This document shows, one piece after another, positions 3,233 through 50,054 of a stretch of DNA of 64,000 bases (position 1 is its first letter; each line of letters opens with the position of its first letter). The stretch is from an uncultured Bacilli bacterium (GTDB lineage Bacteria > Bacillota_I > Bacilli_A > RF39 > UBA660), in the NCBI GenBank assembly GCA_934101595.1, contig CAKORR010000005.1, positions 6,380-70,379 on the forward strand, given 5' to 3'. Under the pieces are notes generated by a model. It was not told where the DNA came from. It searched no databases and was given only the letters and a program-made list of their open reading frames with translations. The translations under genes and the position numbers were made by a program.

Positions 3233-3262
3233 AACCTCATATATATTATGTAGGGTGATCAT

Positions 3263-3844: not shown

Positions 3845-4586
3845 GATAGATATAACAACTTATTTATTTGTTTTATTATATTTTTTATGCGGTTATATTA
3901 AAAATATAATTATCATATACATAATAATTATATTTCATGAATTTGGTCACGTTCTAGCTTCAAAAATATTAAAATATAAAATAACTAGTGTTACAATTTA
4001 TCCTTTTGGGGGAATTACCAAATCCGATCAATTAATTAACGCTCCCCTTAATAGCGACCTAATTATATATTGGGCGGGGCTCATTTTTCAAATAATTTTA
4101 TTTGTACCATTTATGTTATTTTACAAATTGGAAATAATAAATTTGAATACTCTAAAATTATTCGTTTATTTTAATATTTGTATTTTTTTATTTAATGCTC
4201 TTCCAATAGCGCCATTAGATGGATATTTAATTTTAAATAATATTTTAAATAGATTTACCTCATTTTATAATGCTAAAATTATAACTTATATTTTTTCGGC
4301 AATATTTATCGTATTTTTTATTTATTTTTATTATAGTAACTATATTATTTGGGTATTTTTAATCGTAAATCAATTAAAAGAAATAATAAATTTTAAATAT
4401 GTATTTAATAAATTTTTATTAGAGAGACATTTATATAAATTTTCATGGCGCAGAAAAAAATATTATAAAGAGATGAATCTTAAAAAACTTGAAAGAGAGA
4501 AACTTGGCCATTATTATAACGGATTTACATGGTTAAGTGAAAAAGATTTATTAAGTAAAATGTTTGACAAAAAGGGATATTTTTGA
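3813..4586 (+). CDS. M50 family site-2 metalloprotease, SpoIVFB-like
   Basis: HEFGH (HExxH) in a TM helix plus the [10 protein letters not shown] (NxxPxxxLDG) motif and a polytopic membrane topology. Gene order matches spoIVFB-rplU. Confidence 0.7.
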
Positions 4587-10004: not shown

Positions 10005-10781
10005 ATGAGTGTATTAAGAGGAAAAACATTGCTTATTGCCTCTGCTAAAGGCGGTGTAGGCAAAACATTTTTAACTACAAATTTAGCAGGTATATTTGCT
10101 AGTTTAAATAAAAAAGTCTTAATAATTGACTTTGATTTGTCGTGCGGTGGAATAGCAGTTAGCTTAAATACGCCTTTTGAAAAAAACATTTATAATTTTG
10201 TAGATGACTACAATAATAATAGGTATAAAAATTTTTCTAATTACGTAACAAAATATAATGATGAAATATATTTTTTAGCGTGCCCTAAAGATCCACGTCA
10301 AGCTGCCAGGATCGATTCTAAGTATATTGATATAATTCTTGACAAGGCCACAAATAACTTTGATGTTGTTTTAATAGATACAAATCATAATTTAAATGAA
10401 TTTAATATTTCAACCATGGACAAGGTTGATAAGATACTATTTGTAATAACTAACGATTTGTTAGATCTAAAAAATATGCGCAGTTTATTAAGTGTTTTTA
10501 AGGATGTAGAAAATACAAACTACAAGATACTACTTAATAATAGTAGGGATCCTTTTAAAAAGTATTTCTCTTTTTATGATATAAAAAATTTAATTAAAGC
10601 CAATATAGATTATACTATAAGCAGTGATTTATTTATTAAAAATATAGATGCTTACCAAGTTGATGGAAAGATAATTACTTTAGATAAAAAGATGCCAAGC
10701 GTATTTAATAAAGATTATGTTACTTTTATGACTATTGCATCTGATTTGTTCCAAGGAGATGATGAAAATGGCAAAAAGTAG
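10005..10781 (+). CDS. CpaE/TadZ-like ParA/MinD-family ATPase
   Basis: Deviant Walker A SAKGGVGKTF, and a position between the pilins and cpaF. Confidence 0.65.
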   Translation: MSVLRGKTLLIASAKGGVGKTFLTTNLAGIFASLNKKVLIIDFDLSCGGIAVSLNTPFEKNIYNFVDDYNNNRYKNFSNYVTKYNDEIYFLACPKDPRQAARIDSKYIDIILDKATNNFDVVLIDTNHNLNEFNISTMDKVDKILFVITNDLLDLKNMRSLLSVFKDVENTNYKILLNNSRDPFKKYFSFYDIKNLIKANIDYTISSDLFIKNIDAYQVDGKIITLDKKMPSVFNKDYVTFMTIASDLFQGDDENGKK

Positions 10782-12093
10782 CTTAAGAAGTGCTTTTGAT
10801 TTCGGCGAAGATAGAGCAAAACAATCTGTTTTAAATGATTATGATATTTTTAGAGATAAAAAGTTATTGGATTCTTTAAGAACTAAAATAGTTGAAAACT
10901 TGATAGACAATGAGATGCCTAAAGATGTCAATTTGACTGAATGGATAAATGATGAGATAGATAAATCAATCGAAGGTTATGATTTATCTAACCTTGAGAG
11001 AAGCCATTTATTTAATTTGATAGATAACGAAATTAATGGGCTTGGACCATTAACAGAATTACTCGAAGATAAAAACATTACTGAAATAATGGTAAACAGT
11101 CCTAAAGATATTTATATAGAAATAGATGGTAGTATTTTAAAAGATGAATCAGTTTCGTTTATTAATGATGAGCATATCATAAGAACGATTCAAAGAATGA
11201 TAGAACCTATGGGTAGAACAATTGATGCCACTAATCCAATGGTTGACTCAAGACTACCTGATGGTTCAAGAATTAACGCAATCATCCCTCCATTATCAAC
11301 CAAAGGGCCAGTTATCACAATTCGTAAATTTAAGGAAAGTATGACATCAATTGATGATTTAATTAGAATAGGATCAATTACTCCTTATATGGCTAGATTT
11401 CTTGAGGCTTGTGTTCAGGCTAAGGTTAATATTCTTGTTTGTGGTGGTACTGGTAGTGGTAAAACAACGTTATTAAATATACTAAGCAGTTTTATTAATC
11501 AAAACGAAAGAATTATAACGATAGAAGATGCCGCGGAGCTAAGGTTAAATCAAAGCCATGTTATTTCTCTAGAAACAAGAACAGTTAATTATGAGAGTGA
11601 AGGAGAAGTAACTATTAGAGATTTAGTTATAAATTCATTACGTATGCGCCCGGATAGAATTATTGTCGGCGAAGTAAGAGGAAAAGAAGCTTTTGACATG
11701 TTGCAAGCGATGAATACTGGCCATGATGGATCTATGACTACTTTGCATGCTAATGGCCCGCATGATGCTTTAAATCGCCTTGAAACCATGGTATTAATGG
11801 GAAATATGGAAATACCAGTAAATGCTATAAGAGAGTATATGTTTAATGCTATAGATTTAGTTGTAAATATTGAGCGTATGAGTGATGGAAGAAGAAAAAT
11901 AACTAGTATTTCCGAATTGGAAAAAATTACCGATGGAGAAATAAAATTAAAAGAAATATTTGCCTTTAAACAAAAAGGCTTGACTGATAATGGGGAAGTA
12001 GATGGTACCTATATTAAGTACAATTTTATTCCTAAAATATATAAAAAGATTAAGTCAAAAGGAATAAATACTATTGAAGATATTTTTGAATAA
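10768..12093 (+). CDS. Tad pilus secretion ATPase CpaF/TadA
   Basis: Walker [10 protein letters not shown], Asp/His boxes and type II/IV secretion ATPase length. The ATG at 10768 follows an RBS-like aaggagatga. The ORF-track start at 10735 is an upstream alternative. Confidence 0.85.
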
Positions 12094-12119
12094 ATAATCG
12101 TAAACGAAAGGAGTAAAAC

Positions 12120-13130
12120 ATGAATAATGATATGATTTTTGAAGTTACAATAGTCCAGGTTATATCTATTGTTTTACTTCTTATTGCAATTATATATTTA
12201 TTGAAACAATCACGTTTCAATAAATATGAACGGAGATTAGAAGACTTTTCATTGGTCTCTTTAAAAGATAAAGAGAAGCCCTTATTAGATAGAGTAATTA
12301 ATAGCATTTTTAAAATAGTAAAATTGCTTTCCAAAAATTTAGAAAAGCATAATTTTACTCCTGGTTTAGCTATGCGTTATGAAAAATATATTAAATTTGA
12401 AGATAGATTAAAAAAGTCCGGATATGATTATATAGCAGGTAAATTATGTTTATCTATGCTTATTGGAATTTTCAGCTTTATTACAATGATGTTTCAATAT
12501 ACAAAGTTTAACTTAAGTTTCTTTGTTTTAGTACTTATTTTAGGCTTCTATTTACCTGATATATATTTAATAATAGATTTTAAAAATAAGCGTAAAAGAA
12601 TTGAAGAAGATCTTTTAAAAGCAATAATTATAATGAATAGCGCGTTTAAATCAGGAAGTAATATTACCCAAGCTGTTCAAGTGGTTAAAGATAATTTAAG
12701 TGGCCCAATAAGTGATGAATTTAAAAAAATTTACATCGATATAAATTATGGCTTGAGCCTTGATGTAGTTTTTAATAGGTTTTATGAAAGAGTAAAAATA
12801 GATGATATAAAATATATTACTAGTTCTCTAACATTATTGAATAAAACTGGTGGAAACATCGTTAATGTTTTTACACTTATTGAAAAAACATTTTTTGATA
12901 GGAAAAAATTAAGAAATGAATTAAAAAGTTTAACTGCTTCAAGTGTATTTATATATAGATTGTTACTTGCTATGCCATTTGTACTATCGCTTGTAATATT
13001 CATTTTAAATAAAACATATTTTGCACCATTTTTTAACTCTTTATTAGGAATTATATCTTTTGTAATTTTAATATTGCTATATATTTTGTATGTGATTATT
13101 GTTAATAAGATATTGAAGGTGAAAATATGA
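12120..13130 (+). CDS. TadB-like inner-membrane platform protein
   Basis: GspF/T2SSF-like domain with TM helices at both ends, following cpaF. Confidence 0.6.
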   Translation: MNNDMIFEVTIVQVISIVLLLIAIIYLLKQSRFNKYERRLEDFSLVSLKDKEKPLLDRVINSIFKIVKLLSKNLEKHNFTPGLAMRYEKYIKFEDRLKKSGYDYIAGKLCLSMLIGIFSFITMMFQYTKFNLSFFVLVLILGFYLPDIYLIIDFKNKRKRIEEDLLKAIIIMNSAFKSGSNITQAVQVVKDNLSGPISDEFKKIYIDINYGLSLDVVFNRFYERVKIDDIKYITSSLTLLNKTGGNIVNVFTLIEKTFFDRKKLRNELKSLTASSVFIYRLLLAMPFVLSLVIFILNKTYFAPFFNSLLGIISFVILILLYILYVIIVNKILKVKI

Positions 13131-13825
13131 AAAAAAGTTTTGCAACCCGTATTTATAGTAAAAAAATATATGATAAAATTGATACTAAAGTAAAACTTTT
13201 TGGTAATTGGAAAAAAATTGATACTGAAACTTTTTTAAACACTAGGCTTATACTATGTATAATAACTTTCTGTATTACTATTATCACATCTAAAGCTGGA
13301 TTTATCTTAGCACCAATTTTTACAGTCTTTGTATATGTATTATTTGAATATTTTTTACTAGATTATAGATTAAAAAAAAGAACTAAAATATTGGAAGATG
13401 AGTCAATTTATTTTTTCGAGATTTTGGCTTTAACAATTGAAAGTGGCAGAAATTTAAAATCTTCAATAATTGTTGCCACGAAGGCTATTGATAATAACAT
13501 TTCAAACGAGTTTAAAAAGACCATTAATGAAGTTGATATGGGTAAAAGCCTTACCGAAGCCTTGGAAAGTATGAAGAAAAGAATCCCAAGTGATGCCATA
13601 AATAATGCAATTTTAAATATTACTCAATCGAATATCTTTGGAAGTAGTATAATTGAATCGCTTTATAATCAAATTGATTTTTTAAGAGAAAAAGAGCTAC
13701 AAGATGTTAAGAGAGAAATTGTAAAACTTCCAACTAAAATAAGTATTATTTCTGTATTATTCTTTGTACCTATAATGTTGCTTTTAATTTTAGCACCAGT
13801 TGTGTTAAACTATTTTATGAGATGA
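13127..13825 (+). CDS. TadC-like inner-membrane platform protein
   Basis: Second T2SSF-like membrane protein, translationally coupled to tadB. Confidence 0.55.
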   Translation: MKKSFATRIYSKKIYDKIDTKVKLFGNWKKIDTETFLNTRLILCIITFCITIITSKAGFILAPIFTVFVYVLFEYFLLDYRLKKRTKILEDESIYFFEILALTIESGRNLKSSIIVATKAIDNNISNEFKKTINEVDMGKSLTEALESMKKRIPSDAINNAILNITQSNIFGSSIIESLYNQIDFLREKELQDVKREIVKLPTKISIISVLFFVPIMLLLILAPVVLNYFMR

Positions 13826-14644: not shown

Positions 14645-15076
14645 GTGGGTATGAAAAAATTTAATACTAGTTTTACCGGATACTCTAAAACTGAAGTTAA
14701 CAATTTTGTTAAAGAAGTTACAAAAGAGTATGAAAACATGTTAAATAACTTAAAATCCAAAGATAGAGAAATAGAGGCCTTAAATAATGAACTAAAGCAT
14801 TATAAAGAGTTAGAACACTCACTTAACAAGGCACTATTAGTTGCTGAGGATGCCTCAAATAACATTAAAAGGATTGCTAAAAATGAATCGATTTCACTAC
14901 TGGAGGATGCTAAAAAAAATGCCTCACGTATTGTTAATGAAGCATTATTGAAAGCTGATAATATAACCAGTGAGGCTGAATCTTTAAAAAGAAGAGTAAT
15001 TATATTTAAACGCAGATTTAAACAAAGCCTTGAAGATGAAATAAGAATTGTTGATGATATCGACGAGAGACTATAA
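14645..15076 (+). CDS. DivIVA-domain protein
   Basis: N-terminal DivIVA motif (FNTSFTGYSKTEVNNFV) followed by a coiled coil. Follows sepF as in the Bacillus ylm cluster. Confidence 0.6.
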   Translation: MGMKKFNTSFTGYSKTEVNNFVKEVTKEYENMLNNLKSKDREIEALNNELKHYKELEHSLNKALLVAEDASNNIKRIAKNESISLLEDAKKNASRIVNEALLKADNITSEAESLKRRVIIFKRRFKQSLEDEIRIVDDIDERL

Positions 15077-15775
15077 ACTATTATTATTTTTTATGAACTC
15101 ACGGAGCATTTTGGTAAGTGCTCTTTTTTCTATTCTTGAAACATAACTTCTAGATATTTTTAATTCTTTTGCTATTTCTTTTTGGGTCATTTCATCATAA
15201 TCATGTAGTCCGTATCTTTTTACGATAATTAATCGTTCTCTTTCAGTTAAAATGTTTAAATATTTATTAAGTAAAAAGATGTTATTTTTATCATGTAACA
15301 AGTCCGCTAAATCCTTGCTTTCTTGTTTTAAAACGTCAATTAAACTAATTTCATTTCCTTCCTTATCATAACCAATAGAATCATTTAAGCTAACATTGTT
15401 TTGATTTTTTTTATCACTTCTAAAATACATCAAAATTTCATTTTGGATGCATCTTGCAGCATAAGTGGTTATTTTTGTGGATTTATTTTCTTTATAAGTG
15501 TCAATGCCTTTTATTAAACCTATTGTTCCAATTGAAATTAAATCATCTTGGTCATTTTTATTTCCTTCAAATTTTTTAGCTATATGAGCAACCAGTCTTA
15601 AGTTATGTTCTATAAGTTTACTTCGTGCATTTTTATCACCTTTTAACATTTCTTTTACATAATAATCTTCTTCTTCGGTAGTTAATGGATCCGGGAAAAC
15701 ATTATTTGAATAACTGCCTGTGAAAAACATCATTTCCTTAATAATATTTATTAATTGTAAAAACATATAAATCAC
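15071..15775 (-). CDS. sigK: sporulation sigma factor, pro-sigma-K-like (sigma-70 family)
   Basis: Regions 2 and 4 of sigma-70. The N-terminal pro-sequence ...FFTGSYSNNVFPDPLTTEEE... closely parallels B. subtilis pro-sigK (SYVKNNAFPQPLS). The gene is uninterrupted. Confidence 0.55.
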   Translation of the reverse strand: MIYMFLQLINIIKEMMFFTGSYSNNVFPDPLTTEEEDYYVKEMLKGDKNARSKLIEHNLRLVAHIAKKFEGNKNDQDDLISIGTIGLIKGIDTYKENKSTKITTYAARCIQNEILMYFRSDKKNQNNVSLNDSIGYDKEGNEISLIDVLKQESKDLADLLHDKNNIFLLNKYLNILTERERLIIVKRYGLHDYDEMTQKEIAKELKISRSYVSRIEKRALTKMLREFIKNNNSL

Positions 15776-29302: not shown

Positions 29303-29591
29303 CTATTACAATATATGCCAATTTTAGCATTTGATTAAAAAAACATGAATTTTATAGAAAACAAAAATAAAGTGTGTTATACTACCTATAGTGAATGTAA
29401 AGGGTGTTATTATGGAAACGAGTAATCCAAAAAAAATTAATGCGTTATTATTTCCTTTTTTAAATATATATTATATTTTATTAAATGCCTTTAATGGACT
29501 TGTTTTTGTTATATTTAGACTTCCAGTAATATTATTTGAAATGATCAGTTTTAGACTTGACAAAACATATCGTAAATTTAAAGGCGAAAAT

Positions 29592-30968
29592 ATGAAGCCT
29601 GAGCTTAATTTACGTAATACCATTATGCAAGGGCCTAAAAAAAGAGTATATAAATATAGCGAAAGAACTCTAGCTAAGATGTCACAATATAAAGCAGCAT
29701 TATTAAAAGAATTGAGCGATGATACTGAAACTAGGAGTAAAACCCCAATAATATATTACTTTAAAGCTATGGATCCTGATGGAAAAATCATAAGTGGAAC
29801 TATGTATGGTTATACCAAAGTTGATGTAAACTCATTTTTACTAAATGAAGGTTACGACGTTTATATGATAAAAAATAATAAATGGGTTGACTTTTTATAT
29901 GGAGAAACAACGATATTTAAACCAACAATGTCAGTAAAAGATTTATTATTTTGGCTAACTCAATTAAGTACGTATTTAAAGGCGGGTATTACATTGACTG
30001 AGGCTGTTAGGATTCTTTCTAAACAAATGGGAGAGAAAAATAAAATCAAGCAAAGAGCATTTAAAGCGATATCATATGAACTTTCTTTAGGAGAATCTTT
30101 TTCAGGTGCTTTGGAAAAGCAAGGCTCAATGTTTCCGGCACTATTAATTAATATGATAAGAGCAGCCGAAGCAACGGGCACTTTAACTGATACTCTAGAT
30201 GATATGGCCAATTATTATAGTGAGCTAGATAAAACTAGAAAACAAATGATAAGTGCTATGACCTATCCGGCAATCATCATGGTTTTTGCTATCGGTGTTA
30301 TTACTTTCATAATGATTTATGTAATTCCGGAATTTGTAGGAATATACTCTGAATCTGGAGCCAAAATTACTGGTTTAACGGCATTCATCATTAATGCAAG
30401 TAAGTTTTTAACAAATAATATTATTTATATAATATTAGGGATTGCAGCTTTTATCATTGTTTTTGCAATTTTATATAAAAAAGTTACCACTTTTAGAGCT
30501 GTTGTACAATCGTTTTTAATGCATCTACCCGTTATTAGTAAAATTATAATATATAACGAATTAACTATTTTTACTAAAACATTTGCATCCCTTTTAAAAA
30601 ATAATGTATTTATTACTGATAGTATGACTATATTAAGCAAGATAACCAATAATGAAATTTATAAAAATATAATGTATGAGACAGTTAATAATATAGTAAA
30701 GGGAAACAAAATTAGTGATTCATTCAAAAATCACTGGGCTATACCTGACGTTGCATATTATATGATTGTTACTGGTGAAAGTACTGGTGAACTTGCTGAA
30801 ATGATGGACAAAGTAAGTGTGTATTATCAAGAAATGCATCGTAATATCGTTAATAATTTAAAGAGTTTTATTGAACCAGTAATGGTTACAGCTCTTTCTA
30901 TTATAGTTGGAATAATAATTTTAGCAGTCATCATTCCTATGTTTGGCATGTATGAACAGATAGAATAG
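29592..30968 (+). CDS. type IV pilus/T2SS platform protein PilC/GspF family
   Basis: N-terminal cytoplasmic domain (YYFKAMDPDGKIISGTMYGYTKVDVNSFLLNEGYDVYMI) and two T2SSF repeats. The ATG at 29592 follows an RBS aaaggcga. The ORF-track start is 29391. Confidence 0.75.
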   Translation: MKPELNLRNTIMQGPKKRVYKYSERTLAKMSQYKAALLKELSDDTETRSKTPIIYYFKAMDPDGKIISGTMYGYTKVDVNSFLLNEGYDVYMIKNNKWVDFLYGETTIFKPTMSVKDLLFWLTQLSTYLKAGITLTEAVRILSKQMGEKNKIKQRAFKAISYELSLGESFSGALEKQGSMFPALLINMIRAAEATGTLTDTLDDMANYYSELDKTRKQMISAMTYPAIIMVFAIGVITFIMIYVIPEFVGIYSESGAKITGLTAFIINASKFLTNNIIYIILGIAAFIIVFAILYKKVTTFRAVVQSFLMHLPVISKIIIYNELTIFTKTFASLLKNNVFITDSMTILSKITNNEIYKNIMYETVNNIVKGNKISDSFKNHWAIPDVAYYMIVTGESTGELAEMMDKVSVYYQEMHRNIVNNLKSFIEPVMVTALSIIVGIIILAVIIPMFGMYEQIE

Positions 30969-39653: not shown

Positions 39654-40278
39654 ACAAATTATCTATAAATGCTTTGAATAACCTACGACTAATTAAATCA
39701 TCTGTATCCTCTGGATGCCATTCTACCCCAATAAAGAAAGAATGATTTTTATCTTCGATAGCCTCTATAACGTTATCATTAGCTATGCCAACAACATTTA
39801 AATTCGTATTCTTTATGATATCATTATGTCTTGAATTAGTTTTAAATGTTTCTTTTCTAATATATTTATATAATTTACTGTCTTTATTTAAAGACACTTC
39901 ATGAACATACTTTTTGATCGACTTATGATTTCCTTGTTTTAAGGCGCATACAGAGCCATTAAACGCTAAAGCCATCTCTTGCATGCCCAAGCATATTCCT
40001 AAGACAGGAATGCCTAATTTGTGGGTATATTTAATGATTTCAATATCTTTATTATTTATTCCATCACCACCAGGTAAAATAATACCATCACAAGTGTTTA
40101 AAACACTATATATTTTATTTAAATGATTATTAGTGATAATACCTATAATTTCCACATTAAAATATTTTAAACGCTTGATTACACTGTCTCTTACATAGTG
40201 TTTTAAAACTCCATTTGCTTCCTCTCTTAACAAAACCCCTACTCTTTTCATTATTTCCTTTCTAAAATGCAAATACAT
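39652..40278 (-). CDS. class I glutamine amidotransferase-like hydrolase (peptidase C26 family)
   Basis: GICLGMQ nucleophile elbow and a His/Glu region (EWHPE). The stop codon lies inside the 21-bp repeat. Confidence 0.6.
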   Translation of the reverse strand: MYLHFRKEIMKRVGVLLREEANGVLKHYVRDSVIKRLKYFNVEIIGIITNNHLNKIYSVLNTCDGIILPGGDGINNKDIEIIKYTHKLGIPVLGICLGMQEMALAFNGSVCALKQGNHKSIKKYVHEVSLNKDSKLYKYIRKETFKTNSRHNDIIKNTNLNVVGIANDNVIEAIEDKNHSFFIGVEWHPEDTDDLISRRLFKAFIDNL

Positions 40279-40573
40279 TTATTAATGTAATTATAACTCC
40301 TATTAATAAACCATATAATAATATCTTGTCCTCATTATATTTTTTTGCTTCAGGAAGTATTTCATGTATGGACAAAGTTATCATTATTCCGGCAACTAAT
40401 ATCAGAATTATACTAATTGATAAATTATTAATATAATTTTTTAAAAATATATAAGATAATATTGCACCTAGTGGTTCAGCCAAGCTTGATATAAATACTA
40501 ATTTTAGAGCCTTTTTACGACTATTAGTAGCATAATAAACTGGTATTGCAATACCTATTCCCTCAGATTGCAT
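40262..40573 (-). pseudogene. zupT: zupT (ZIP zinc transporter) C-terminal fragment
   Basis: GIGIAIPVYYATNSRKKALKLVFISSLAEPLGAI... aligns with ZupT residues that follow the second HNxPEG motif. Continues the reading frame of 43372..43863 once the insert is removed. Confidence 0.6.
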
Positions 40574-40597
40574 TCGTTAAGCAACACATATATAGAA

Positions 40598-42172
40598 TTA
40601 AAACTTTTTGAAGTTAAAAAATATATCAACACATCCATTCTCATGTATAGAAATTTTTTTAATCAGTTTCAAAACTAAATCCCTACTTGGATACTTATCC
40701 TTAAATGATAGAACCTCTTCTTGTAATGATTTAAAGATATTTTTACTTTTATTTATTTTTTCTAAATAACAATTGATCTCACTTAATTTTTCTTTTTTTG
40801 CCAAAATATCTTTGTTAAATTTGGTCTCTATCCTTTGGTACATATCTTCATTTATTTTATTCTGTAATTTATCAATGTACATATTATCCAAGTTATTTTT
40901 AATATTATCTATCTCAAACTCTAATTTATTTTTTATCTTATTATAAGAGGATAGTATATCGTTATTTTTATATTTTTTTAATACTTCTTTATCTAGTATT
41001 TTATTATTTACCATATATATTATTTTTTTTATTTCGTTAACTACACCTAGTTCTAAATTGTCATAATCAAAACCATGAGCGGTGCATAATCTAGGACTCT
41101 TATTATATTTTCGATAATAATTACATACCGTAGTACTTTTTCCATTGGCCCTTCTCGCTCTAATTCCAATATTATGGCCACAATCAGCACATCTTAGTAA
41201 GCCATCTAATAAAAACATTTCTTTTTTATCATTTCTTTGATGTTGATTTGGTAATAATTGTTGAACTCTATCAAATGTTTCTTTATTAATAATAGCGTCA
41301 TGTGTATTTTTAACTATTACCCATTCTTCTTTAGGATTGCAAATTATTTTACGGTATTTATAACTTAGTCTAGAACGCTTATTTTGAACTAAATCTCCAG
41401 TATATAATCTATTTTGCAATATTTTTTTTATAGTAGTATTGCACCAGTACCCTAAAATATTTCCATTTTTTCCAGATCTTATAAAATTTCTGTTTCTAGT
41501 TATAGAAAATGTGGGTATATTCTCACTATTTAATATATCTCTTATTTTATTAATTCTTATACCATTGGTAAACATATCAAATATTCTTTTAACAATTGGT
41601 GATTCAATTTCGTCTTTTACTAGATGATTCTTATTATTTGGATCGGTTTTATAACCAAAAGGGGGACATCCCCCTACCCATTTGCCTTCACATTGCATAG
41701 TATGCAGTGCTGTTCTAATTTTTTTTGATAAATCTTTCGCATACATATCATTTAATATTGCTTTAAATGGTGCAATGTCATTATTAGAATTATCTAAAAA
41801 AGTATCTATATTATCTGTTAAGGCAACATACCTAATATTATGAGCAGGAAACCATTTTTCTATATATTCACCAGTACCAATGTAATCTCTTGATAATCGT
41901 GATAAATCTTTAGTAATAACCATATTTACCCTTTTATTCTCAATGTCTTTTAACATTCTTTTAAAATTAGGTCTATCAAAATTAGTACCTGTAAACCCAT
42001 CATCAACATATATATCAACTAAAGTATATCCTTTTTCCTTTACGTAATTAGTTAATAATATTTTTTGATTTTGAATACTTTCACTTTCCCCTAAATTATC
42101 ATCTTCTTTAGATAACCTTATATAGATTGCTACCAAGTATTCTTTTACTATATTTTTTAAAACATTATACAT
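40598..42172 (-). CDS. large serine recombinase (resolvase/invertase N-domain plus zinc ribbon plus coiled coil)
   Basis: AIYIRLSKEDD (catalytic Ser), VITKDLSRLSRD, Cys-rich CADCGHN...CNYY...CTAH, and length 524 aa. Confidence 0.85.
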   Translation of the reverse strand: MYNVLKNIVKEYLVAIYIRLSKEDDNLGESESIQNQKILLTNYVKEKGYTLVDIYVDDGFTGTNFDRPNFKRMLKDIENKRVNMVITKDLSRLSRDYIGTGEYIEKWFPAHNIRYVALTDNIDTFLDNSNNDIAPFKAILNDMYAKDLSKKIRTALHTMQCEGKWVGGCPPFGYKTDPNNKNHLVKDEIESPIVKRIFDMFTNGIRINKIRDILNSENIPTFSITRNRNFIRSGKNGNILGYWCNTTIKKILQNRLYTGDLVQNKRSRLSYKYRKIICNPKEEWVIVKNTHDAIINKETFDRVQQLLPNQHQRNDKKEMFLLDGLLRCADCGHNIGIRARRANGKSTTVCNYYRKYNKSPRLCTAHGFDYDNLELGVVNEIKKIIYMVNNKILDKEVLKKYKNNDILSSYNKIKNKLEFEIDNIKNNLDNMYIDKLQNKINEDMYQRIETKFNKDILAKKEKLSEINCYLEKINKSKNIFKSLQEEVLSFKDKYPSRDLVLKLIKKISIHENGCVDIFFNFKKF

Positions 42173-42480
42173 TTTTCCTCCTTGATTATTAGGAATATAA
42201 TAATTGACTATGGTTATAAAAGCACATTGTAATCATAATGTAAGCCCACTTCTTTTTGATTTTTTAAATAATTTATGAAAGCTTCGACTAATAAAGTTTC
42301 TATTTTTTCATTATCATTATCATAAAATAAATTATATTTTAATTCCTTGGTTATAATAGCGCCTCCCTTTTTGTGATCTAATTAAATTTATGAAAAAACA
42401 TGCCTATTTATTTATAAAACAAAAAATAGACTATTAGATTAATCTATGTTACAATAACTTGTATAAGGAGGTTTTTGTTA

Positions 42481-43358
42481 TGAAAAAACAATTAAAAGAA
42501 TTATTTAAACTAAACAAGGAGGCTATTTCTAAAAATAAACCAGTTAAAATTACAAATTTAACTCAATATAGAAAAGAGTTAGAAAAAGGTACAACTGATT
42601 TTGATTTTAGTGAACTAAACGTAAATGATGATGATATTCAAAATATTAATCTAGAAAATTTGAATTTAGACATTGATTTAAGAGAAGTTTTTGTGCCTTT
42701 TAATGGTTCACAATTATTTGGAAAAAGTGTGCTTTTACCAATTGTTAAAGAACCAGGAGATTCTTTTTTAAACATCTCGAATTCAAGATTAGCTGGAAAT
42801 AATGTATCAGGAAGCTTAGATAAATTTGGTGATGACTTATATGGTAATCAAACATATATTTGGTATAGTGAAGAAACATTTGATGATGAGTACAAGTCAA
42901 AATATCCACAATTTTTCTTATCGAAAGACGCTCCTGAAGAATTGCGTCAAAAATATTATAATCCTATTATGGTTTCTAGAGAAATAATTGATTTAAGTCA
43001 TATAACTGCCGATAGCGAAGAAAATAAATATATAAAAATTCAGGTACCTGTAAGACAAACTTTAACTATTGATGAATACTTAAAATATTATGAATTTTTA
43101 AAAGGAAAGTATTTAGGAAATTTTTATATTAACGAGCAAGATTTATTGCAAATTGATATAATCGAAAGATATGGATTAGAACGAAGAGAAGAAATTTTAA
43201 GTCATATTAAAAGTAGAATAAACATTATTAACCAAATTGCTGAATGTGAGAATTACAATATAAATGAAATTAGCGACAAAGACGTTTGTTTATCATTAAA
43301 ACTTAGATTGAAAAAAGAAGATTTTAAAGAAATAAATAAACTACCAAATAATTGGTAG
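42481..43358 (+). CDS. hypothetical protein (cargo of the serine-recombinase element)
   Basis: ~292 aa, acidic, no recognisable motif. Divergent from the recombinase. The ORF-track start is 42459. Confidence 0.35.
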
Positions 43359-43371
43359 TTTTATTTAATAT

Positions 43372-43863
43372 TTATATTTTATTTGGTGATGCATAAAAAA
43401 AACAATCTTCAGGAATGTTGTGTAACATCAAGGCAACAGCTATTTTAATACCTAGGGATATATCTGCATAGCTAGACATAAATGATGCTATACCCTCCGG
43501 AAAATTATGAACCATTAATGCTATCATATTTAATATTCCTAATTTATACAAACTTTTTTCATTTTTTGAAAATTTAACAATAAATTTATTAATTATCAAT
43601 ATAATTAATGTTCCCAGTAAGAAGAAAACAATTAAAATTAAATTAGTTGTAAAAGCTGAATAGGTTTTTAAAAGATTAATAAATGACTCAGGTATTAATT
43701 CAAAGATGCTTATAGATATCATTATAGCAAGCGAAAAGCTTAAACATAGAGTAATAAATTTGTTTTGGTTTTCCTTTTTAATATTAATGAATGAAAATAA
43801 ACCACCAATCATAGTTGCAAACCCTGCCACTGAAGAAATTATTAATGCATATATTAGTTTCAT
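43372..43863 (-). pseudogene. zupT: zupT N-terminal fragment
   Basis: TM helices and both ZIP motifs HNFPEG and HNIPE. The frame ends 11 codons after the junction. Confidence 0.6.
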
Positions 43864-43982
43864 GTAACCACCAATTAATTATATGTTTTATACATAATTT
43901 ATATTTTGAAATTAATTAAAAGGTAATAATTACCAAACTAATTAGGGGTATTTTTCCTATTTCTGTCCATACTATAAATAGG

Positions 43983-44084
43983 AGGTAAGATTATGGAAAG
44001 AAATTCAAGCAAAGCAAAGAATTCTAATTCAGCAAGAGAAAAAGCACGTAAATCAAGTGCTAGATGTTCAAATGCTAGAAATAA
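43983..44084 (+). CDS. 33-aa highly basic Ser/Asn/Arg-rich peptide
   Basis: MERNSSKAKNSNSAREKARKSSARCSNARNNRK with a strong RBS aggaggt 7 nt upstream. Not in the ORF track. Confidence 0.25.
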
Positions 44085-44119: not shown

Positions 44120-45001
44120 TTAAAATTCCTTTTTTTCATGGGGATGATTCTTGTAATCATTCTTTATTTTTTCATTACTTAAATGAGTATATATTTGAGT
44201 AGTTGATATATCGCTATGCCCTAATAGTTCTTGAACTATTCTTAAATCAGCGCCATTATTGATCATATGAGAAGCAAATGAGTGTCTTAAAGTATGGGGT
44301 GATATATCTTTTTTTATATTTTTTTCAAAACATATTTTTTTAATTATCTTAAAAAAGCCTTGTCTTGTCATTTGTCTACCAAAATTATTCAAAAAAACAT
44401 ATTCAGAGATATTATTTTTAAGGATTAAATTGCGGTAGGTTGTAATATAATCCTTTAAGTATGCCGAGGCAACTTCTCCAAACGGAATTAATCTTTCTTT
44501 ACTTCCCTTTCCATAAACACGAATTAAATCATCAGTAAAAGAAATATTTGATATTTTTAAATTTATAAGTTCAGATACTCTAAGGCCTGTTGAATATAGT
44601 AATTCAAGCATAGCTTTATTACGATAATCCAAAGGTGTTTTAGTTAGTATATCAAGAAGAATGTCTACCTCCTCTATTGTTAAAAAATTAGGTAATTTTT
44701 TTCTTAATTTTGGCTGAGATATATCTTCAGTTGGATTTATTTTAATCCTACCAATAAAATTTAAATATTTATAAAAAGTTTTTAATACTGTCAAATAATG
44801 AGCTCTTGTGGTATCACTCTTCTCTCTATTCATTTCCAAGAATTTTTTTACATCTTTTCTAGTTACATTAGTAGTATCTTTTTTGGATAAAGAATTTAAA
44901 AATAATTGTAAATTTTCTTCATATGATTTGACAGTATTTTCGCTTAATTTTCTTTCATATTTTAAGTAATCTAAGAAATCTAAAATATTTTGATCTTCCA
45001 T
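44120..45001 (-). CDS. xerD: tyrosine recombinase XerD-like
   Basis: C-terminal HTLRHSFASHMINNGADLRIVQELLGHSDISTTQIYTH (R..HxxR..Y catalytic set) and a SAM-like N-domain. 293 aa. Confidence 0.75.
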   Translation of the reverse strand: MEDQNILDFLDYLKYERKLSENTVKSYEENLQLFLNSLSKKDTTNVTRKDVKKFLEMNREKSDTTRAHYLTVLKTFYKYLNFIGRIKINPTEDISQPKLRKKLPNFLTIEEVDILLDILTKTPLDYRNKAMLELLYSTGLRVSELINLKISNISFTDDLIRVYGKGSKERLIPFGEVASAYLKDYITTYRNLILKNNISEYVFLNNFGRQMTRQGFFKIIKKICFEKNIKKDISPHTLRHSFASHMINNGADLRIVQELLGHSDISTTQIYTHLSNEKIKNDYKNHPHEKKEF

Positions 45002-45080
45002 AAAATCACACTCGCTAAAATAATTATATCTCTAAAATCATTTTTTGGCAAAATATGATATAATAAATAATGGTGATTTT

Positions 45081-46298
45081 ATGGAACTACTAGCTAATAT
45101 GTTAAGACCTAAAAAACTATCCGAAGTTATTGGCCAAACTCATTTAATTGGTAAAGATAAAATAATAACAAATATGATCCAAAACAAAAAGCTTTTTTCA
45201 ATGATTTTATATGGTCGCCCTGGCATTGGTAAAACAAGTATTGCCAATGCCATAGTTGGTGAACTAGATATTAAGTATCGCTTTTTAAATGCAACAGTAA
45301 ACAATAAAAATGATTTTGATATAGCCATTGAAGAAGCGAAAATGTATGGCGAAATGATACTCATAATTGATGAAATACATCGTATGAATAAGGATAAGCA
45401 AGATATTCTTTTACCGCATATCGAATCAGGGTTAATTATTTTAATTGGGTTAACTACTTCCAACCCATACCATAAAATTAACCCTGCAATACGAAGCAGG
45501 TGCCAAATATTTGAATTACATGATTTGACTGATCAAGAATTATTGGAAGGATTAAAAAAGGCCACAAAGTTTTTGAAAGATGTAAAGATTGATGATGAGG
45601 CTCTTTCTTTTATAGTATCTTATGCAAATGGTGATTTAAGGAGCGCTATCAATTTTCTAGAAATTGCATATTATTCAAGTAATAATAAAGTTATAACAAT
45701 TGATTTATTAAAAAAGATTAATTCTAAAGCTGTTTTCTTACATGACAAAAATGAGGATGGACACTATGATGTGTTAAGTGCCTTTCAAAAATCGATTAGA
45801 GGAAGTGATCCTGACGCTGCTATTCATTATTTAGCGAGATTAATAGTGGCTGGGGATTTAGACAGTATTTATAGACGGTTATCAGTTATTGCTTATGAGG
45901 ATATTGGGCTTGCTAATCCAAGCATTGGTCCAAAGTTAATGGCTGCTATTCACGCCGCCGAACTAGTTGGCCTTCCAGAGGCTAGAATTCCTCTTGCTGA
46001 AATTACTATTGAAATGAGCTTATCACCTAAAAGTAATAGTGCTTATTTAGCGCTAGATTCAGCCATTAAAGATATAGAAAGCGGTAATTCTGGCAGAGTG
46101 CCTGATCATATAAAAACCTCTTCTAAAACATATCTTTACCCTCATGATTATCCAAACGATTATGTGTATCAAGAATACTTACCAAAAAAACTTGCTGATA
46201 AAAAGTATTACACCCCTAAAAAAAATGGCTATGAAGCGACAATTAAAGCTATTTACGATAAATTAGAGAATATAAAAAGCAAAAATAATCATTCATAA
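45081..46298 (+). CDS. rarA: replication-associated recombination protein A (MgsA/RarA)
   Basis: AAA+ Walker A GRPGIGKTS, Walker B LIIDEIHR and the MgsA C-terminal domain. The ORF-track start is 45045. Confidence 0.85.
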   Translation: MELLANMLRPKKLSEVIGQTHLIGKDKIITNMIQNKKLFSMILYGRPGIGKTSIANAIVGELDIKYRFLNATVNNKNDFDIAIEEAKMYGEMILIIDEIHRMNKDKQDILLPHIESGLIILIGLTTSNPYHKINPAIRSRCQIFELHDLTDQELLEGLKKATKFLKDVKIDDEALSFIVSYANGDLRSAINFLEIAYYSSNNKVITIDLLKKINSKAVFLHDKNEDGHYDVLSAFQKSIRGSDPDAAIHYLARLIVAGDLDSIYRRLSVIAYEDIGLANPSIGPKLMAAIHAAELVGLPEARIPLAEITIEMSLSPKSNSAYLALDSAIKDIESGNSGRVPDHIKTSSKTYLYPHDYPNDYVYQEYLPKKLADKKYYTPKKNGYEATIKAIYDKLENIKSKNNHS

Positions 46299-46320: not shown

Positions 46321-49300
46321 TTAATTTTCTTTTCTTCTTTTAATTTTTACTAAACCTAATAAAATAGATGACAATCCTAATACGCTTAGCCAAGGATTTG
46401 TATCAATTCCAGTTTTAGGAGGCTCTATATCTCCTTCTCCAGCTGACACATAATATACTTTTATAACATTTTCATCGTTATTGTTTGAAATAGTAAGTGG
46501 AAGATTCTCTACTTTATCTAAGGCATAATATGTTGGCATTTTATCAGTATATGTTTCAACAACATCTAAGAAAGATTGATTTGTAAACACATCAGTTTTA
46601 GAACTATCTATTTCGCCATCTAGATAATATAAAACACTATAAGAAAGGTCAGTTCTTTTATTATATTTAAATACAATTTCGTTTAATGCTTCATTGTAAT
46701 GAACTGTTAATGTTTTTCCCTTATCTTTAGTGGTATATCCATCAATATCTATTGGATATTCTTTAACCTCGCACATATAAGTTTGATTTTCAACTATTTT
46801 GCGTGGAGCGATTTCTTTATTAGTCTCAGCATCAATGTATTTTACAACATATCTTAAATCATTTCTTTTCTCGTATAAAAATACTATAACATTCTCGCCT
46901 TCATCACTAATTGTAATCATTTTAATTGGCTCTGAAACAAGTTTGTATCCATCTATTTTAATATATTCTTCTTTTATAACATCTTTGTATTTTAGATTTC
47001 TTACTACCTTGTTATCACTAATTGAATTGCCTGTTTTTTTATCCAAATATTTAACTGCATAACTTAAATTATCTTTTATTTTGTAATAAAAAACTATTTC
47101 ATTGTTTTCTACATCAATTTTAAGTTCTTTGGTTTTTTCATCATCTAATACATAGCCTTTTATATCTATGGCATCTTCTTTTACAACATTCCTGTATCTT
47201 TGATTTTTTACAACTTTTTCATTCTCTAGAGACTTACCAGTTTCTCTATCTAAGTATTTTACTGTGTATTCTAAATCAGTTCTAATGGTATATCTAAATA
47301 CTATTTCATTATTTTCGGTATTTATTTCGATTGATTTAGTATTATCACCCATTAATATATAGCCTTTTATTTCAATTGCTTCTTCAGTATGAATAGATTT
47401 ATATTCTTTATTTTTAATAGTTTTAGAGTTTGCAATTTCATTATTAGTTTCATCATCAACATAACGTACTTTAACACTATATTTCTTTCTTGGGTATAAG
47501 AATTCAATTACTTTATTTTCTTCATCAATAACCACATCTTTAGTGCTTTCTTCGGGCATTAAATAACCTTTTAAAGCTGGTTTAGCAGTAAGATGAACAT
47601 TTTCCATATAAGTTATATTATCAAACTTTTCATCGTCATATAAAGGTGTTCTGTCAACTAAATCAAGATATCTTACAGTGTATTTGAAATCAGTTCTCTT
47701 GTAATAACAAACATTAATATAATTATCCTGATCTTTAACGACATATGAACCACTTTCATGCATGTTAGATGAACTAACTACACCATTTTTATAGCCAAAA
47801 CTTGGCTTATAAGCATTTAAAATATCATCATTTAATGTCACTTCGTCTAAAAATGTCTTATTTTCTTCAGTAGCACTACCAAGTTTATTTGAATTATCTT
47901 GTGAATCTTTAAAATAATTAATCGTATATTTTAAATTACTTTTTTTAGTGTAAATTATATTTATAATATTTTTTTCGTTATCAATATTAATCACAAAGTC
48001 TTTATTTTCATTAATAGTGTTATATCCATCTGGCTTTTTTAGATTTTCATCAACATTAATTAGTGATCCAACCTCACCTTTTCCATTTAATCTATACAGT
48101 AAATTATCTTCTGACATACTGTCTTTATAATAATTAACTTGATAGTTACTTAAAATGTAATAAACTGATGAACTGTCAGAAATTTTAACAGAGTCTTTAG
48201 AGTTATTAGGCTTATCATATGAAACTTCCGCATATTCATTAGTTTCATTCCATCCATTTGAAAGATGGCTTTCTAAAGCTTTTATTTTAAAACTTACACT
48301 ACTACCAGTTTCAGTAATATTACCTATATCAAATGTTATTTCATTATCATTAATTGTAGCATTGGAAGGTGAAGCACTTCCAGGTATATATTCAAATCCT
48401 TCTTTTATTACATCTTTTATTTTAGCATTAGTTCCAGCTGGTGATGTAGTTGTAATATTACTAGTTATAGCTTTAAAATCATCATTTAACTTATTTCCTG
48501 TATTAGCTAAATAAAAGTAACTAGGTTTTGTAGCAATATTTTGTAATAACTTTTTCTCGTCTTTATATTTATATTCTGGATCAAATCCAAAGCCTATTGT
48601 AAAAATATCATCAACGATACCTTTTGCATAATTTGCAGCGTTCATAGTATCATTAACATAATTTTCAGTAGTCCATTCTAAATCACCTGGTAAATCATAA
48701 CTTTCTGGCATTCCGTCAGTAAGTAAAATAATATGTTTTGAGTCTTTACCATTCAATTTATTAGCTGCTAAACGTAATCCAGCGGCAATATTAGTAGCAG
48801 ATTCAAGGCCTGAAAATTCACCTTCAGAAAAATGACTCTCTTCAGCGGAAAAATCAGATTTAGTAAATGCTTGCGATTTAAAATTCCTTTGTAATTTGGC
48901 ATTATCCCCAAATTCAACTAAGGCTATTTTCGCTTTTGGATACTTCTTTAATAAACTCTTAGAAAATTCAATCGCTTTCTCTTTAGCAATATTTATTTTG
49001 TAATCATATTCACATTGCCAATCATATTCACATTCATTCTTTGACATTTTCCATGCCATAGTTGTTGATATATCCAATACAAAAACTATATAAGGCACGG
49101 CTTCTTTAAATTCTGATGTAGTAACATTTTTGCCTTTAACGTCTAATGTAACTAAGTATTCGCCATCAACATCTGTTTTACTTACTGTCTTAGTTAATTT
49201 AACATCTCCTGGTTTAGATAATGAGCCATTATCATTTACAGGATCTTTAATGTCCCAAGTTTTATTAGTATTTGCTAATACTATTCCATAATTTCCAAAA

Positions 49301-49368
49301 TTTGAAAAAAGAATTGCAAATACCATAAAAATTCTTAATAAAAAATCAAATTTAGTATTCTTTTTCAT
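46321..49368 (-). CDS. large cell-wall-anchored adhesin (vWA domain plus ~5 MucBP-like repeats plus PPKTG sorting signal)
   Basis: Signal peptide. MIDAS-like VLDISTTM...LTDGMPE. Repeated ~70-aa DL(E/R)YTVKYLD... units. C-terminal PPKTG, a hydrophobic stretch and KIKRRKEN. Confidence 0.7.
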   Translation of the reverse strand: MKKNTKFDFLLRIFMVFAILFSNFGNYGIVLANTNKTWDIKDPVNDNGSLSKPGDVKLTKTVSKTDVDGEYLVTLDVKGKNVTTSEFKEAVPYIVFVLDISTTMAWKMSKNECEYDWQCEYDYKINIAKEKAIEFSKSLLKKYPKAKIALVEFGDNAKLQRNFKSQAFTKSDFSAEESHFSEGEFSGLESATNIAAGLRLAANKLNGKDSKHIILLTDGMPESYDLPGDLEWTTENYVNDTMNAANYAKGIVDDIFTIGFGFDPEYKYKDEKKLLQNIATKPSYFYLANTGNKLNDDFKAITSNITTTSPAGTNAKIKDVIKEGFEYIPGSASPSNATINDNEITFDIGNITETGSSVSFKIKALESHLSNGWNETNEYAEVSYDKPNNSKDSVKISDSSSVYYILSNYQVNYYKDSMSEDNLLYRLNGKGEVGSLINVDENLKKPDGYNTINENKDFVINIDNEKNIINIIYTKKSNLKYTINYFKDSQDNSNKLGSATEENKTFLDEVTLNDDILNAYKPSFGYKNGVVSSSNMHESGSYVVKDQDNYINVCYYKRTDFKYTVRYLDLVDRTPLYDDEKFDNITYMENVHLTAKPALKGYLMPEESTKDVVIDEENKVIEFLYPRKKYSVKVRYVDDETNNEIANSKTIKNKEYKSIHTEEAIEIKGYILMGDNTKSIEINTENNEIVFRYTIRTDLEYTVKYLDRETGKSLENEKVVKNQRYRNVVKEDAIDIKGYVLDDEKTKELKIDVENNEIVFYYKIKDNLSYAVKYLDKKTGNSISDNKVVRNLKYKDVIKEEYIKIDGYKLVSEPIKMITISDEGENVIVFLYEKRNDLRYVVKYIDAETNKEIAPRKIVENQTYMCEVKEYPIDIDGYTTKDKGKTLTVHYNEALNEIVFKYNKRTDLSYSVLYYLDGEIDSSKTDVFTNQSFLDVVETYTDKMPTYYALDKVENLPLTISNNNDENVIKVYYVSAGEGDIEPPKTGIDTNPWLSVLGLSSILLGLVKIKRRKEN

Positions 49369-49379
49369 AGTTTTCCTCC

Positions 49380-50054
49380 TTAATTAATTTTTTTTGCACT
49401 TATGACTAAAAATGAATTTGCCGGTTTATAATAACATGTTTGTAGTGTGATAATTTTATCATTTTTATTCACTGAAACATGAGTATCATAAATACTTTCT
49501 TCCTTGAGCCAATTTAAGTGTGTAATCCAATCGGAATCATTAAAACTAACAATAGTGTGAGGATATTTTTTAGCCTTTTTGATCATTATCGAAAAAATCT
49601 CCCACTTAGTCTCTTCAGAATTTAGATTTAAATAAATATACTTATTTTTAATATAAAAATCCTCATTTAAATAAAGTTCCAAATCATGAAAAACTGCATT
49701 TTTTAATGTTCTCGAATTATGACCATATATTAATAATTTACGGTCTATAATATTGTTACGATAATCTAAAAACACTTTGTCTGGATATTTTAAATAAAAT
49801 TTATTATCATTTGCCTGAAATATTTTTGTATTAATATTTGTGTTAGGAATTTTTATATATCCTACGATGTTTTCATCTTTTATTTTGTCACTCTCTTTTT
49901 TATCTGTAACAATATCTTTATTATATTCGTTACTCTTAATAGTAGATACAGCCTTATCATTGATGCTAATATTCTTATATCCAAAAGTAAATAATATTAT
50001 TATCAATAAAAAGCTTGCCAGAACAACCTTTAAATTTTTCACAAAGGTCCACAC
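49380..50054 (-). CDS. srtB: class B sortase
   Basis: N-terminal TM, YGHN and TLQTC catalytic motifs. Length and sequence closely parallel C. difficile SrtB. Confidence 0.8.
   Translation of the reverse strand: MWTFVKNLKVVLASFLLIIILFTFGYKNISINDKAVSTIKSNEYNKDIVTDKKESDKIKDENIVGYIKIPNTNINTKIFQANDNKFYLKYPDKVFLDYRNNIIDRKLLIYGHNSRTLKNAVFHDLELYLNEDFYIKNKYIYLNLNSEETKWEIFSIMIKKAKKYPHTIVSFNDSDWITHLNWLKEESIYDTHVSVNKNDKIITLQTCYYKPANSFLVISAKKIN

Follow-up and report, generated by a model that had tools for sequence, protein, structure and literature searches.

A small serine-recombinase element splitting the zinc transporter gene zupT belongs to a mobile family of mini-islands that targets ZIP transporter genes

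The zupT gene, which encodes a zinc transporter of the ZIP family, is divided into two parts in an uncultured gut bacterium of the Bacilli (assembly GCA_934101595.1, contig CAKORR010000005.1), from which we analyzed a stretch of 64,000 nucleotides (nt), hereafter the window. On comparison with an uninterrupted allele of the same species, the gene is split by the precise insertion of an element encoding a large serine recombinase (LSR), and removal of this element in silico rebuilds zupT exactly. Judging from its relatives at other loci, the element is a member of an undescribed, horizontally mobile family of mini-islands, which targets the HNxPEG-coding DNA of ZIP transporters. The original prediction for this region had proposed an intervening element excised during development or, alternatively, a tiny integrative element with a novel cargo. 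The alternative proved to be its best-supported part, the family being mobile and its cargo swappable. A conserved micro-open reading frame (ORF) preceding the recombinase gene, the recurrent ATA at its initiation position and the sigma-E-like promoter motif upstream of it are the three new results of this work.

The two halves of the transporter are carried by minus-strand ORFs at 43863..43372 (163 amino acids (aa)) and 40573..40262 (103 aa). The Pfam Zip match of the former ends at profile position 219, and that of the latter covers positions 219 to 321. The interrupted 5' ORF reads through 11 extra codons inside the element before its stop at 43372. Fusion of 43863..43408 with 40561..40262 in silico yields an open 251-aa protein, joined as ...HNIPE/GIGIAIP..., and the cut point is the Glu codon of the second HNxPEG motif. 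A public protein search with the fused sequence returned an intact 251-aa ZupT (P0001), 99% identical over its full length, as well as many other homologs, each 250 or 251 aa long. P0001 is encoded by L001 (Logan ERR11769796), a contig of the same species that aligns to window positions 44035..43409 and then straight to 40566..39869, the two alignments sharing a 4-base overlap, CTGA. Because this empty-site contig abuts both flanks with the 4-base overlap, the insert can be bounded at 40563..43408, or 2,846 bp with one copy of the GA crossover counted. The original prediction, which had found the halves to be colinear and to rejoin in frame when 40566..43407 is removed, agrees with these bounds within the four shared bases; it had also looked to relatives for an intact zupT that would define attB, and L001 supplies this empty site.

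Exchange at a GA dinucleotide accounts for the two junctions and for the GAA/GAG difference that lies one base downstream. Written in gene orientation, the empty site is ACATTCCT-GA-GGGAATAGG, and attR can also be written GTGTTGCTTAACGAATGCAATCT-GA-GGGAATAGG. The crossover GA supplies the first two bases of the codon for Glu in HNIPEG, a metal-binding motif. The attB site (ACATTCCTGAGGGAATAGG) has the core ATTCCT-GA-GGGAAT and, read by eye, is symmetric over its inner 5-6 bp. The attP site rebuilt from the element ends (GCAATCTGAAGATTGTTTT) is a 48-bp imperfect palindrome, GTGTTGCTTAACGAATGCAATCT GA AGATTGTTTTTTTTATGCATCAC, with the pattern GTGnTGC..CAATCT-GA-AGATTG..GCAnCAC, and its arms around the GA agree at 17 of 23 positions, as counted by eye without a script. 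No terminal repeats beyond the core were found in the element, and an Rfam scan of the 39.5-44.2 kb region returned nothing significant. As reconstructed here, the junction layout is the anatomy expected of a large serine recombinase.

The recombinase itself matches three Pfam domains, Resolvase (PF00239, 1e-22), Recombinase (PF07508, 9e-23) and Zn_ribbon_recom (PF13408, 2e-9), so that the earlier reading of the 524-aa ORF as an LSR holds for all three LSR domains. The YxRxS serine motif (Y17, I18, R19 and S21) is invariant across 32 homologs, and the stop codon lies 33 nt upstream of the attR crossover. Besides the LSR gene, the 2,846-bp insert contains a small ORF and a cargo gene for a 292-aa protein, and has no conjugation or mobilisation functions. 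The original inventory of the insert had listed the LSR and the 292-aa protein; both are present, but they are not the only genes, as the conserved small ORF lies between them at 42354..42214. The closest LSR relatives among phage records, in IMG/VR and among plasmids reach at most 34%, 48% and 35% identity, respectively. We also considered the element as a prophage remnant and rejected it, since its PHROGs match is confined to the integrase, the best phage LSR is 34% identical and the best one in IMG/VR is 48% identical.

LSRs that are 60-81% identical to that of the window likewise split ZIP genes in other chromosomal contexts, and each lies immediately 5' of the ZIP 3' half on the same strand. 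In the window and in strain L002, the 2.8-kb element occupies the second HNxPEG motif and carries the 292-aa protein (285 aa in L002), to which no function is assigned. The second motif is also used in L017 (2.8 kb; a 155-aa protein weakly matching AbiQ), L019 (3.9 kb; two small proteins of membrane or zinc-ribbon type), L022 (5.4 kb; cargo including a RhuM/PDC-S05 gene) and L018 (more than 10 kb; biosynthetic genes, the zupT 5' half not being found within 10 kb). The first motif is used in L003/L004 (4 kb; GNAT, ASCH and a 142-aa protein, PADLOC candidate PDC-M11) and L007-L010 (6.8 kb; a single 1,587-aa NPCBM / F5/8-type-C protein), and in L054 the element lies in the first motif of a GufA-like ZIP gene (9.3 kb; a radical-SAM cluster). 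ZIP genes house 13-14 of the 21 distinct loci that bear both the small ORF and the LSR. In L023, L024 and L027, LSRs of 50-53% identity, each preceded by the small ORF, occupy an (A/T)CAGAAGC site within the gene of an ABC-transporter ATPase; the target encodes ...PEAISM... (...PEAISMSDRVIVLS...), and the crossover is again the GA of a Glu codon.

Within the family, the LSRs are 62-92% identical, versus 36-57% for the ZupT halves of their hosts. The LSRs of L003 and L017 are 92% identical, yet the two elements split different copies of the motif and carry different cargo. Since the recombinases are far closer to each other than the host transporters are, and since motif copies and cargo differ, horizontal movement and cargo exchange are indicated: the family, on this comparative evidence, is one that moves between distantly related Firmicutes while swapping cargo. 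We found no report in the literature that links zupT with serine recombinases.

Several observations on individual members may be recorded here. Some of the cargo looks defence-related: L017:1916-3009 encodes a protein with weak likeness to AbiQ/ToxN, after which come about 600 bp of non-coding DNA, L003:5734-7105 corresponds to the PADLOC candidate PDC-M11 (GNAT + ASCH), and L022:8409-8870 to RhuM/PDC-S05. A decayed member at L006:7761-9998 keeps the small ORF, the LSR gene and the zupT 3' half and lacks the cargo and the zupT 5' half; uvrD lies directly upstream of it. A 668-aa database protein (P0129) consists of an LSR, 77% identical to that of the window, fused to a Zip domain; its LSR reading frame appears to continue into the zupT 3' half.

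In the ZupT cluster formed at 90% identity, the 103-aa half was seen on 60 contigs, the 163-aa half on 46 and the intact 251-aa form on at least 27, the last being about one-third of the observed alleles. As split and intact alleles occur in one cluster, the species is polymorphic for the element. The original prediction had hinged on the existence of intact alleles in relatives and on fragments free of further inactivating mutations; intact alleles thus exist in the same species, and both halves of the split gene are open and conserved. L002, which carries the element, is colinear with the window at 95.4% DNA identity over both flanks and the element, with 97% identity for the LSR, 96.7% for the cargo and 91% for the intergenic region. 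By these figures, the element has diverged together with its flanks. Between the two LSR genes, the proportion of nonsynonymous differences (pN) is 0.012 and that of synonymous differences (pS) is 0.113, giving a pN/pS of about 0.1. The zupT 3' half shows 15 synonymous and 2 nonsynonymous changes (pN/pS 0.04), and the 5' half has too few changes for a selection estimate. The 3' half would therefore be under purifying selection between the two carriers, which fits a split gene that still matters.

The small ORF was revealed by aligning the regions upstream of related LSRs. Its ATA start codon explains its absence from ORF-finder lists. ATA occupies the initiation position in the window (42352..42354), L002, L003, L017 and L007, which represent four distinct element lineages, and ATG does so in L006, L018, L019 and L054; the spacing to the ribosome-binding site (RBS) is identical across ATA- and ATG-start loci. 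The recurrent ATA may represent a start that is weak by design or else an artefact that hides the gene from annotators. A peptide-profile search identified an open copy directly 5' of an LSR, on the same strand, at 26 loci (21 distinct), in which LSR identity falls to about 40% and the ORF spans 35-46 codons. An RBS precedes it in all of the 21, and pN is smaller than pS for every close pair compared. The peptide has no relative in Pfam or PDB, SprB/YotN included, and no homologs were found in plasmid and phage databases. A HMMER search recovered only 7 tiny homologs among 1.84 billion representative proteins; no larger known domain thus contains the small protein as a fragment. We consider it quite probable that the small ORF is part of the recombination module. 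It may also be the directionality factor of the LSR, an assignment that we make tentatively. The original prediction had suggested a gene for such a factor elsewhere in the genome; a candidate does exist, but within the element.

The bipartite promoter-like motif upstream of the small ORF has the general form [G/A]AATAWW-N14-CATAnnTT, in which the 14-nt spacing is fixed and the spacer sequence varies. It occurs as AAATAAA-N14-CATA(A/G/C)ATT in the window, L002, L003, L017 and L006, and as GAATATT-N14-CATATTTT in L018 and L019. Across the 64-kb window, the strict motif occurs once, at this position on the minus strand. A scan with the relaxed pattern [GTA][AC]ATA[AT][AT]-N13-15-CATA matched 13 of the 22 distinct upstream regions at a distance of 31-71 nt 5' of the small ORF, where the background expectation is 0.025 per region, and the matches include members that were uninspected when the motif was defined (L029, L007, L027, L024 and L020). 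Among related LSRs without the small ORF, with 300 nt upstream searched, the relaxed motif was present in 4 of 120 (Fisher p = 1e-9 versus the family) and in 4 of the 55 with an A+T content of at least 70% (p = 4e-6). Inspection by eye of the aligned small-ORF upstream sequences revealed no sigma-70 -35 box 17 nt from any -10-like hexamer. Haldenwang is said to have given, in 1995, a spacing of 14 nt for the sigma-E consensus. The Bacillus subtilis sigma-E consensus is (T/G)(A/C)ATA(A/T)(A/T) ... CATACA(A/C)T (bioRxiv 10.1101/2020.04.13.040188), and the sigma-E promoters of Clostridioides difficile combine an ATA -35 with a CATA-type -10 element (PMC3789822). The boxes of the small-ORF motif fit the B. 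subtilis mother-cell consensus, as a consensus match. These findings are suggestive of an operon of the small ORF and the LSR gene behind a conserved sigma-E-like promoter motif. Sporulation-specific expression of this operon is possible, if rather doubtful.

The genes of the host mark it as a putative endospore former. An uninterrupted sigK, lacking a skin-like element and scoring above the NCBIfam cut-offs, lies at 15071..15775, and genes for a spoIVFA-like M23 and a spoIVFB-like M50 peptidase lie at 3263..4586 next to rplU and obg, placed between mreC and rplU as in Bacillus; the sigK- and spoIVFB-like genes on which the original prediction had drawn are thus in place. The loci of two other element or cargo hosts include spoIVB, spoIIR, spoIID and spoIIID.

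In a host of this type, the element could serve as a domesticated developmental switch, with zupT kept off in the germ line and restored in the mother cell, like sigK/skin, spsM/SPbeta and gerE/gin. The position of the LSR directly 5' of the 3' half of the interrupted gene, as in skinCd (PMC5025042), would suit such a role, as would the sigma-E-like motif, the sporulation genes of the host and the purifying selection on the split gene. The intact alleles, however, amount to about one-third of those in the species, showing that the gene need not be split; the family is also horizontally mobile with unrelated cargo, it uses two insertion points and other target genes, and zupT has no known mother-cell role. 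We regard a switch serving the host as quite improbable.

The explanation that we favor is a small integrative element (2,846 bp) that is neither viral nor conjugative, in which a two-gene module (the 46-codon ORF, then the LSR) occupies one end and exchangeable cargo the remainder. Sequence comparison shows the LSR to join its palindromic attP to an attB in the HN(I/F)PEG-coding DNA of ZIP transporters; integration splits zupT, and the reverse reaction would rebuild it exactly. The small protein, expressed from a presumably weak ATA start in the subclade of the window, would be the directionality factor or exert some other control over excision. Excision would be triggered mainly in the sporulating mother cell, so that the spore would keep the integrated copy while the mother cell would regain zupT and release the circle on lysis. 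Taken as a whole, this explanation is the one toward which the evidence inclines us, somewhat above an even balance. Its parts differ in strength: that the element is an active LSR element targeting ZIP genes is very probable, and its sporulation-linked excision is plausible but falls short of probable. A stricter version, in which a sigma-E-type promoter drives the AUA-start micro-protein and the LSR, excision is confined to the mother cell, and circles released by lysis are taken up by neighboring cells, seems unlikely to us.

The developmental excision of the original prediction is thereby upheld in part: the candidate directionality-factor ORF, the sigma-E-like motif and the purifying selection on the zupT 3' half speak for it, and a number of points weigh on the other side. 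To our knowledge, zupT is not a sporulation gene, and we know of no mother-cell role for it. The zupT promoters in six other hosts contain no sigma-E-like motif. The sigma-E assignment is a consensus match in DNA of 75% A+T, and the motif was partly derived from the same sequences in which it was counted, although it recurs in uninspected members. The sigma-E-like matches in two host control promoters, which in themselves lend some support, are weak, namely AAATATT-N13-CATATTAA about 125 nt upstream of sigK and TAATCTT-N14-CATATATA (3217..3245) just 5' of the spoIVFA-like gene. No similarity of the small peptide to known directionality factors was detected. The selection result is drawn from 17 substitutions, and the signal could also stem from recombination with element-free strains. 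Finally, low-power searches of IMG/VR and the JGI metagenomes for the junction of an excised circle gave no hits to the exact attP of the window or to a degenerate attP of the family; the IMG/VR negative carries little weight, because that collection lacks the integrated form and the whole family.

Two candidates were tried and rejected in this connection. Control of zupT itself by sigma-E is unsupported, as the promoter of the window's zupT (43878..43906, AAATATA-N14-CATATAAT) is the only one to fit the relaxed motif, and does so through the CATATAAT box, which holds a perfect TATAAT. A 2.6-kb contig with the cargo gene, considered as an excised circle, is the integrated form.

The main rival is an ordinary mini-transposon of the TndX/TnpX type without developmental control, whose LSR alone would integrate and excise at low frequency in growing cells. 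The small ORF would then encode a repressor, leader peptide or accessory protein with no part in directionality, the motif would be a weak housekeeping or element-specific promoter, and the loss of zupT would be collateral or mildly useful. The best solved-structure match of the LSR catalytic domain is indeed TnpX of Tn4451 (8e-28, about 45-50% identity by eye from the alignment), and the full-length match to SprA of SPbeta is weaker. Tn5397 has a GA crossover, and its TndX targets Fic-domain-coding DNA, that is, DNA for a conserved domain, and is reported to be sufficient for both integration and excision (PMC4430133). Given that the catalytic domain is closest to TnpX and that the related TndX is self-sufficient, a helper protein may be unneeded, which is a further point against the explanation that we favor. 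DUF4368 is found in a few LSR homologs of 50-63% identity, relatives of about 52% identity insert at the similar CCAGAAG of the ABC ATPase gene, and the variable, partly defence-like cargo and the polymorphism of the species also suit a plain transposon. This rival is nevertheless confronted with the LSR of the window, in which DUF4368 (PF14287) gave no hit at E <= 0.01, and with the strict linkage of the small ORF to the LSR across the clade. The motif, moreover, lacks a correctly spaced sigma-70-like -35 box while its boxes and spacing fit sigma-E, and the element has co-diverged with its flanks over about 5% DNA divergence with both zupT halves intact. We consider this rival a serious possibility, yet on the whole a rather doubtful one.

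Another possibility would be a dead relic, with the element immobile and zupT permanently inactivated. The failure to find a circle junction, the decayed copy in L006 and the small ORF without a canonical start codon in the window are in line with it. In opposition to this, the LSR is full-length with a pN/pS of about 0.1, the att arms are undamaged and symmetric, the two zupT halves remain open and conserved, and an ATA start is seen in four distinct lineages at a conserved distance from the RBS. A relic is thus highly improbable. The features of the locus are listed in Table 1.

Table 1. Features of the split zupT locus in the window
Feature	Position	Strand	Description
zupT 3' part	40262..40561	-	99 codons, GIGIAIP... 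through the stop codon
attR	40540..40588	-	...GTGTTGCTTAACGAATGCAATCT GA GGGAATAGGTATTGC... (gene orientation); crossover GA at 40564-40563
LSR	40598..42172	-	524 aa; own RBS 41 nt past the small ORF
Small ORF	42214..42354	-	46 codons; initiation position holds ATA, 7 nt downstream of RBS GGGAGG
Bipartite promoter-like motif	42385..42413	-	AAATAAA-N14-CATAAATT, upstream of the small ORF; sigma-E type (ATA -35, CATA -10)
Sigma-70-like promoter, extended -10	42427..42455	+	TAGACT-17-TACAAT, TG; 5' of the cargo gene; consensus match only
Cargo gene	42480..43358	+	292 aa; no match in Pfam, PHROG or PADLOC
Bidirectional terminator-like hairpin	43338..43361		10-bp stem, between the cargo 3' end and the stop of the truncated zupT 5' ORF
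attL	43385..43433	-	...ACATTCCT GA AGATTGTTTTTTTTATGCATCAC... (gene orientation); crossover GA at 43410-43409
zupT 5' part	43408..43863	-	152 codons, ending ...HNIPE; Pfam Zip up to position 219

The cargo protein, which the original prediction had called a protein of unknown function, gave no functional match in our searches, and the PADLOC search revealed no defence signature in it. Its family comprises 46 database clusters, none of them annotated. The AlphaFold model is confident (pLDDT 82, pTM 0.74), and Foldseek found no match to it among solved structures. Distant homologs are ordinary chromosomal genes near murA, rpmE, spoIIR and spoIID with no LSR nearby, and the element seems to have captured a host gene. 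Such homologs lie at L011:6001-6954, L016:6001-6936 and L012:2916-7936 in related spore formers, the one in L012 among several adjacent unannotated ORFs of similar size. The sigma-70-like promoter of the cargo gene is divergent from the recombination module. A general scan for sigma-70 promoters gave 29 sites versus 33 expected from shuffled sequence and, showing no excess, was not used.

A 5.1-kb filamentous-phage-like prophage occupies 34473..39653 of the window and is absent from strain L002. It is bounded by a 21-bp direct repeat, TAATATATGTTATGTTAACTT (34473-34493 and 39633-39653), which we take to resemble a dif site by comparison with that of B. subtilis. Its genes include those for a G2P-type replication protein (34487..35287) and a Zot-like assembly ATPase (37544..38287), as well as those for a 68-aa membrane protein resembling a coat protein (38465..38671) and an Arc-like repressor (39383..39535). 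Up to 34413, most ORFs of at least 120 aa are on the plus strand; from 34487 onward, most are on the minus strand. The dif-like repeat lies exactly at the switch, and xerD (44120..45001) and rarA (45045..46298) are near it. The window probably spans the replication terminus; a terminus at the dif-like repeat would place zupT about 6-9 kb from dif. Three other regions (10005..13825, 29391..30968 and 46321..50054) contain Tad/type-IV-pilus-like genes, which encode a MinD/ParA-like ATPase, a TadA/VirB11-like ATPase and a PilC/ComGB-like protein, together with a 1,015-aa VWA + MucBP surface protein beside a class B sortase. The pilus genes could be relevant if DNA uptake were the transfer route of the element.

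If the favored explanation is true, developmentally programmed excision extends beyond sporulation genes and prophage-sized elements, and circles freed by mother-cell lysis suggest a transfer route for elements without transfer machinery. In the stricter version with mother-cell-only excision, the element would be the first of its kind in a non-sporulation gene, and the spread of a 2.8-kb element without transfer genes across genera, at no cost to the germ line, would be explained. Even without a link to sporulation, the family provides a compact LSR/att system whose targets are readable from the protein motif HNxPEG, with the crossover at the GA of the Glu codon. It also provides a new class of LSR-coupled proteins of about 40 aa, candidates for the directionality factors that are hard to find and wanted for genome engineering, and its recurrent ATA start hides a small gene from standard annotation. 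Zinc acquisition in gut Firmicutes draws on ZupT, and the presumably reversible knockout of zupT in about two-thirds of the observed strains could thus affect fitness under host zinc limitation.

Among the known systems, the LSR elements of Durrant et al. 2022 are comparable in that diverse LSRs integrate at a single conserved coding-sequence site, with boundaries inferable from empty sites (PMC10083194). In the portion of that text searched, ZIP or zupT is not mentioned as a target, and to that extent its account covers neither the minimal architecture nor the conserved small ORF nor the promoter motif. With the TndX/TnpX transposons (Tn5397, Tn4451/Tn4453), the element shares the TnpX-like catalytic domain, the GA crossover and the use of more than one target site, and with Tn5397 also the targeting of DNA that encodes a conserved protein motif. 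It differs from these transposons in having no conjugation or mobilisation genes, in lacking the DUF4368 typical of the multi-targeting clade, in its conserved small ORF coupled to the LSR, and in the much narrower targets of its family, mostly two HNxPEG-coding ZIP sites.

Sporulation-specific intervening elements combine an LSR with tiny, sequence-unique directionality factors under mother-cell control, such as GirX (42 aa) and CD1234 (72 aa) (PMC5595907, PMC5025042). The gin element of Bacillus cereus (GirC/GirX) is non-viral and has 31 genes, and skinCd of C. difficile (CD1231/CD1234) has 19 genes (PMC5595907, PMC5025042, PMC5499854). As in gin, skinCd and SPbeta (SprA/SprB), an LSR element interrupts a coding sequence that precise excision would rebuild; as in skinCd, the LSR adjoins the 3' part of the interrupted gene. 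The companion of the LSR is a very small protein lacking known motifs, of 46 codons in the window against the 42 aa of GirX and 72 aa of CD1234 in gin and skinCd, and the recombination genes may stand behind a mother-cell-type promoter (a consensus match in the window), as in the gin/skinCd type. The element of the window is, like gin, non-viral. In contrast to the 31 and 19 genes of gin and skinCd, it is 2.8 kb long with one cargo gene, and its small protein has no detectable similarity to SprB/YotN, the one of these factors whose sequence was covered by the libraries searched. Its target is a housekeeping metal transporter and not a mother-cell sporulation gene, so that it departs from the sporulation-intervening class in one defining feature. 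Unlike gin, skinCd and SPbeta, its family is mobile between hosts and polymorphic within a species.

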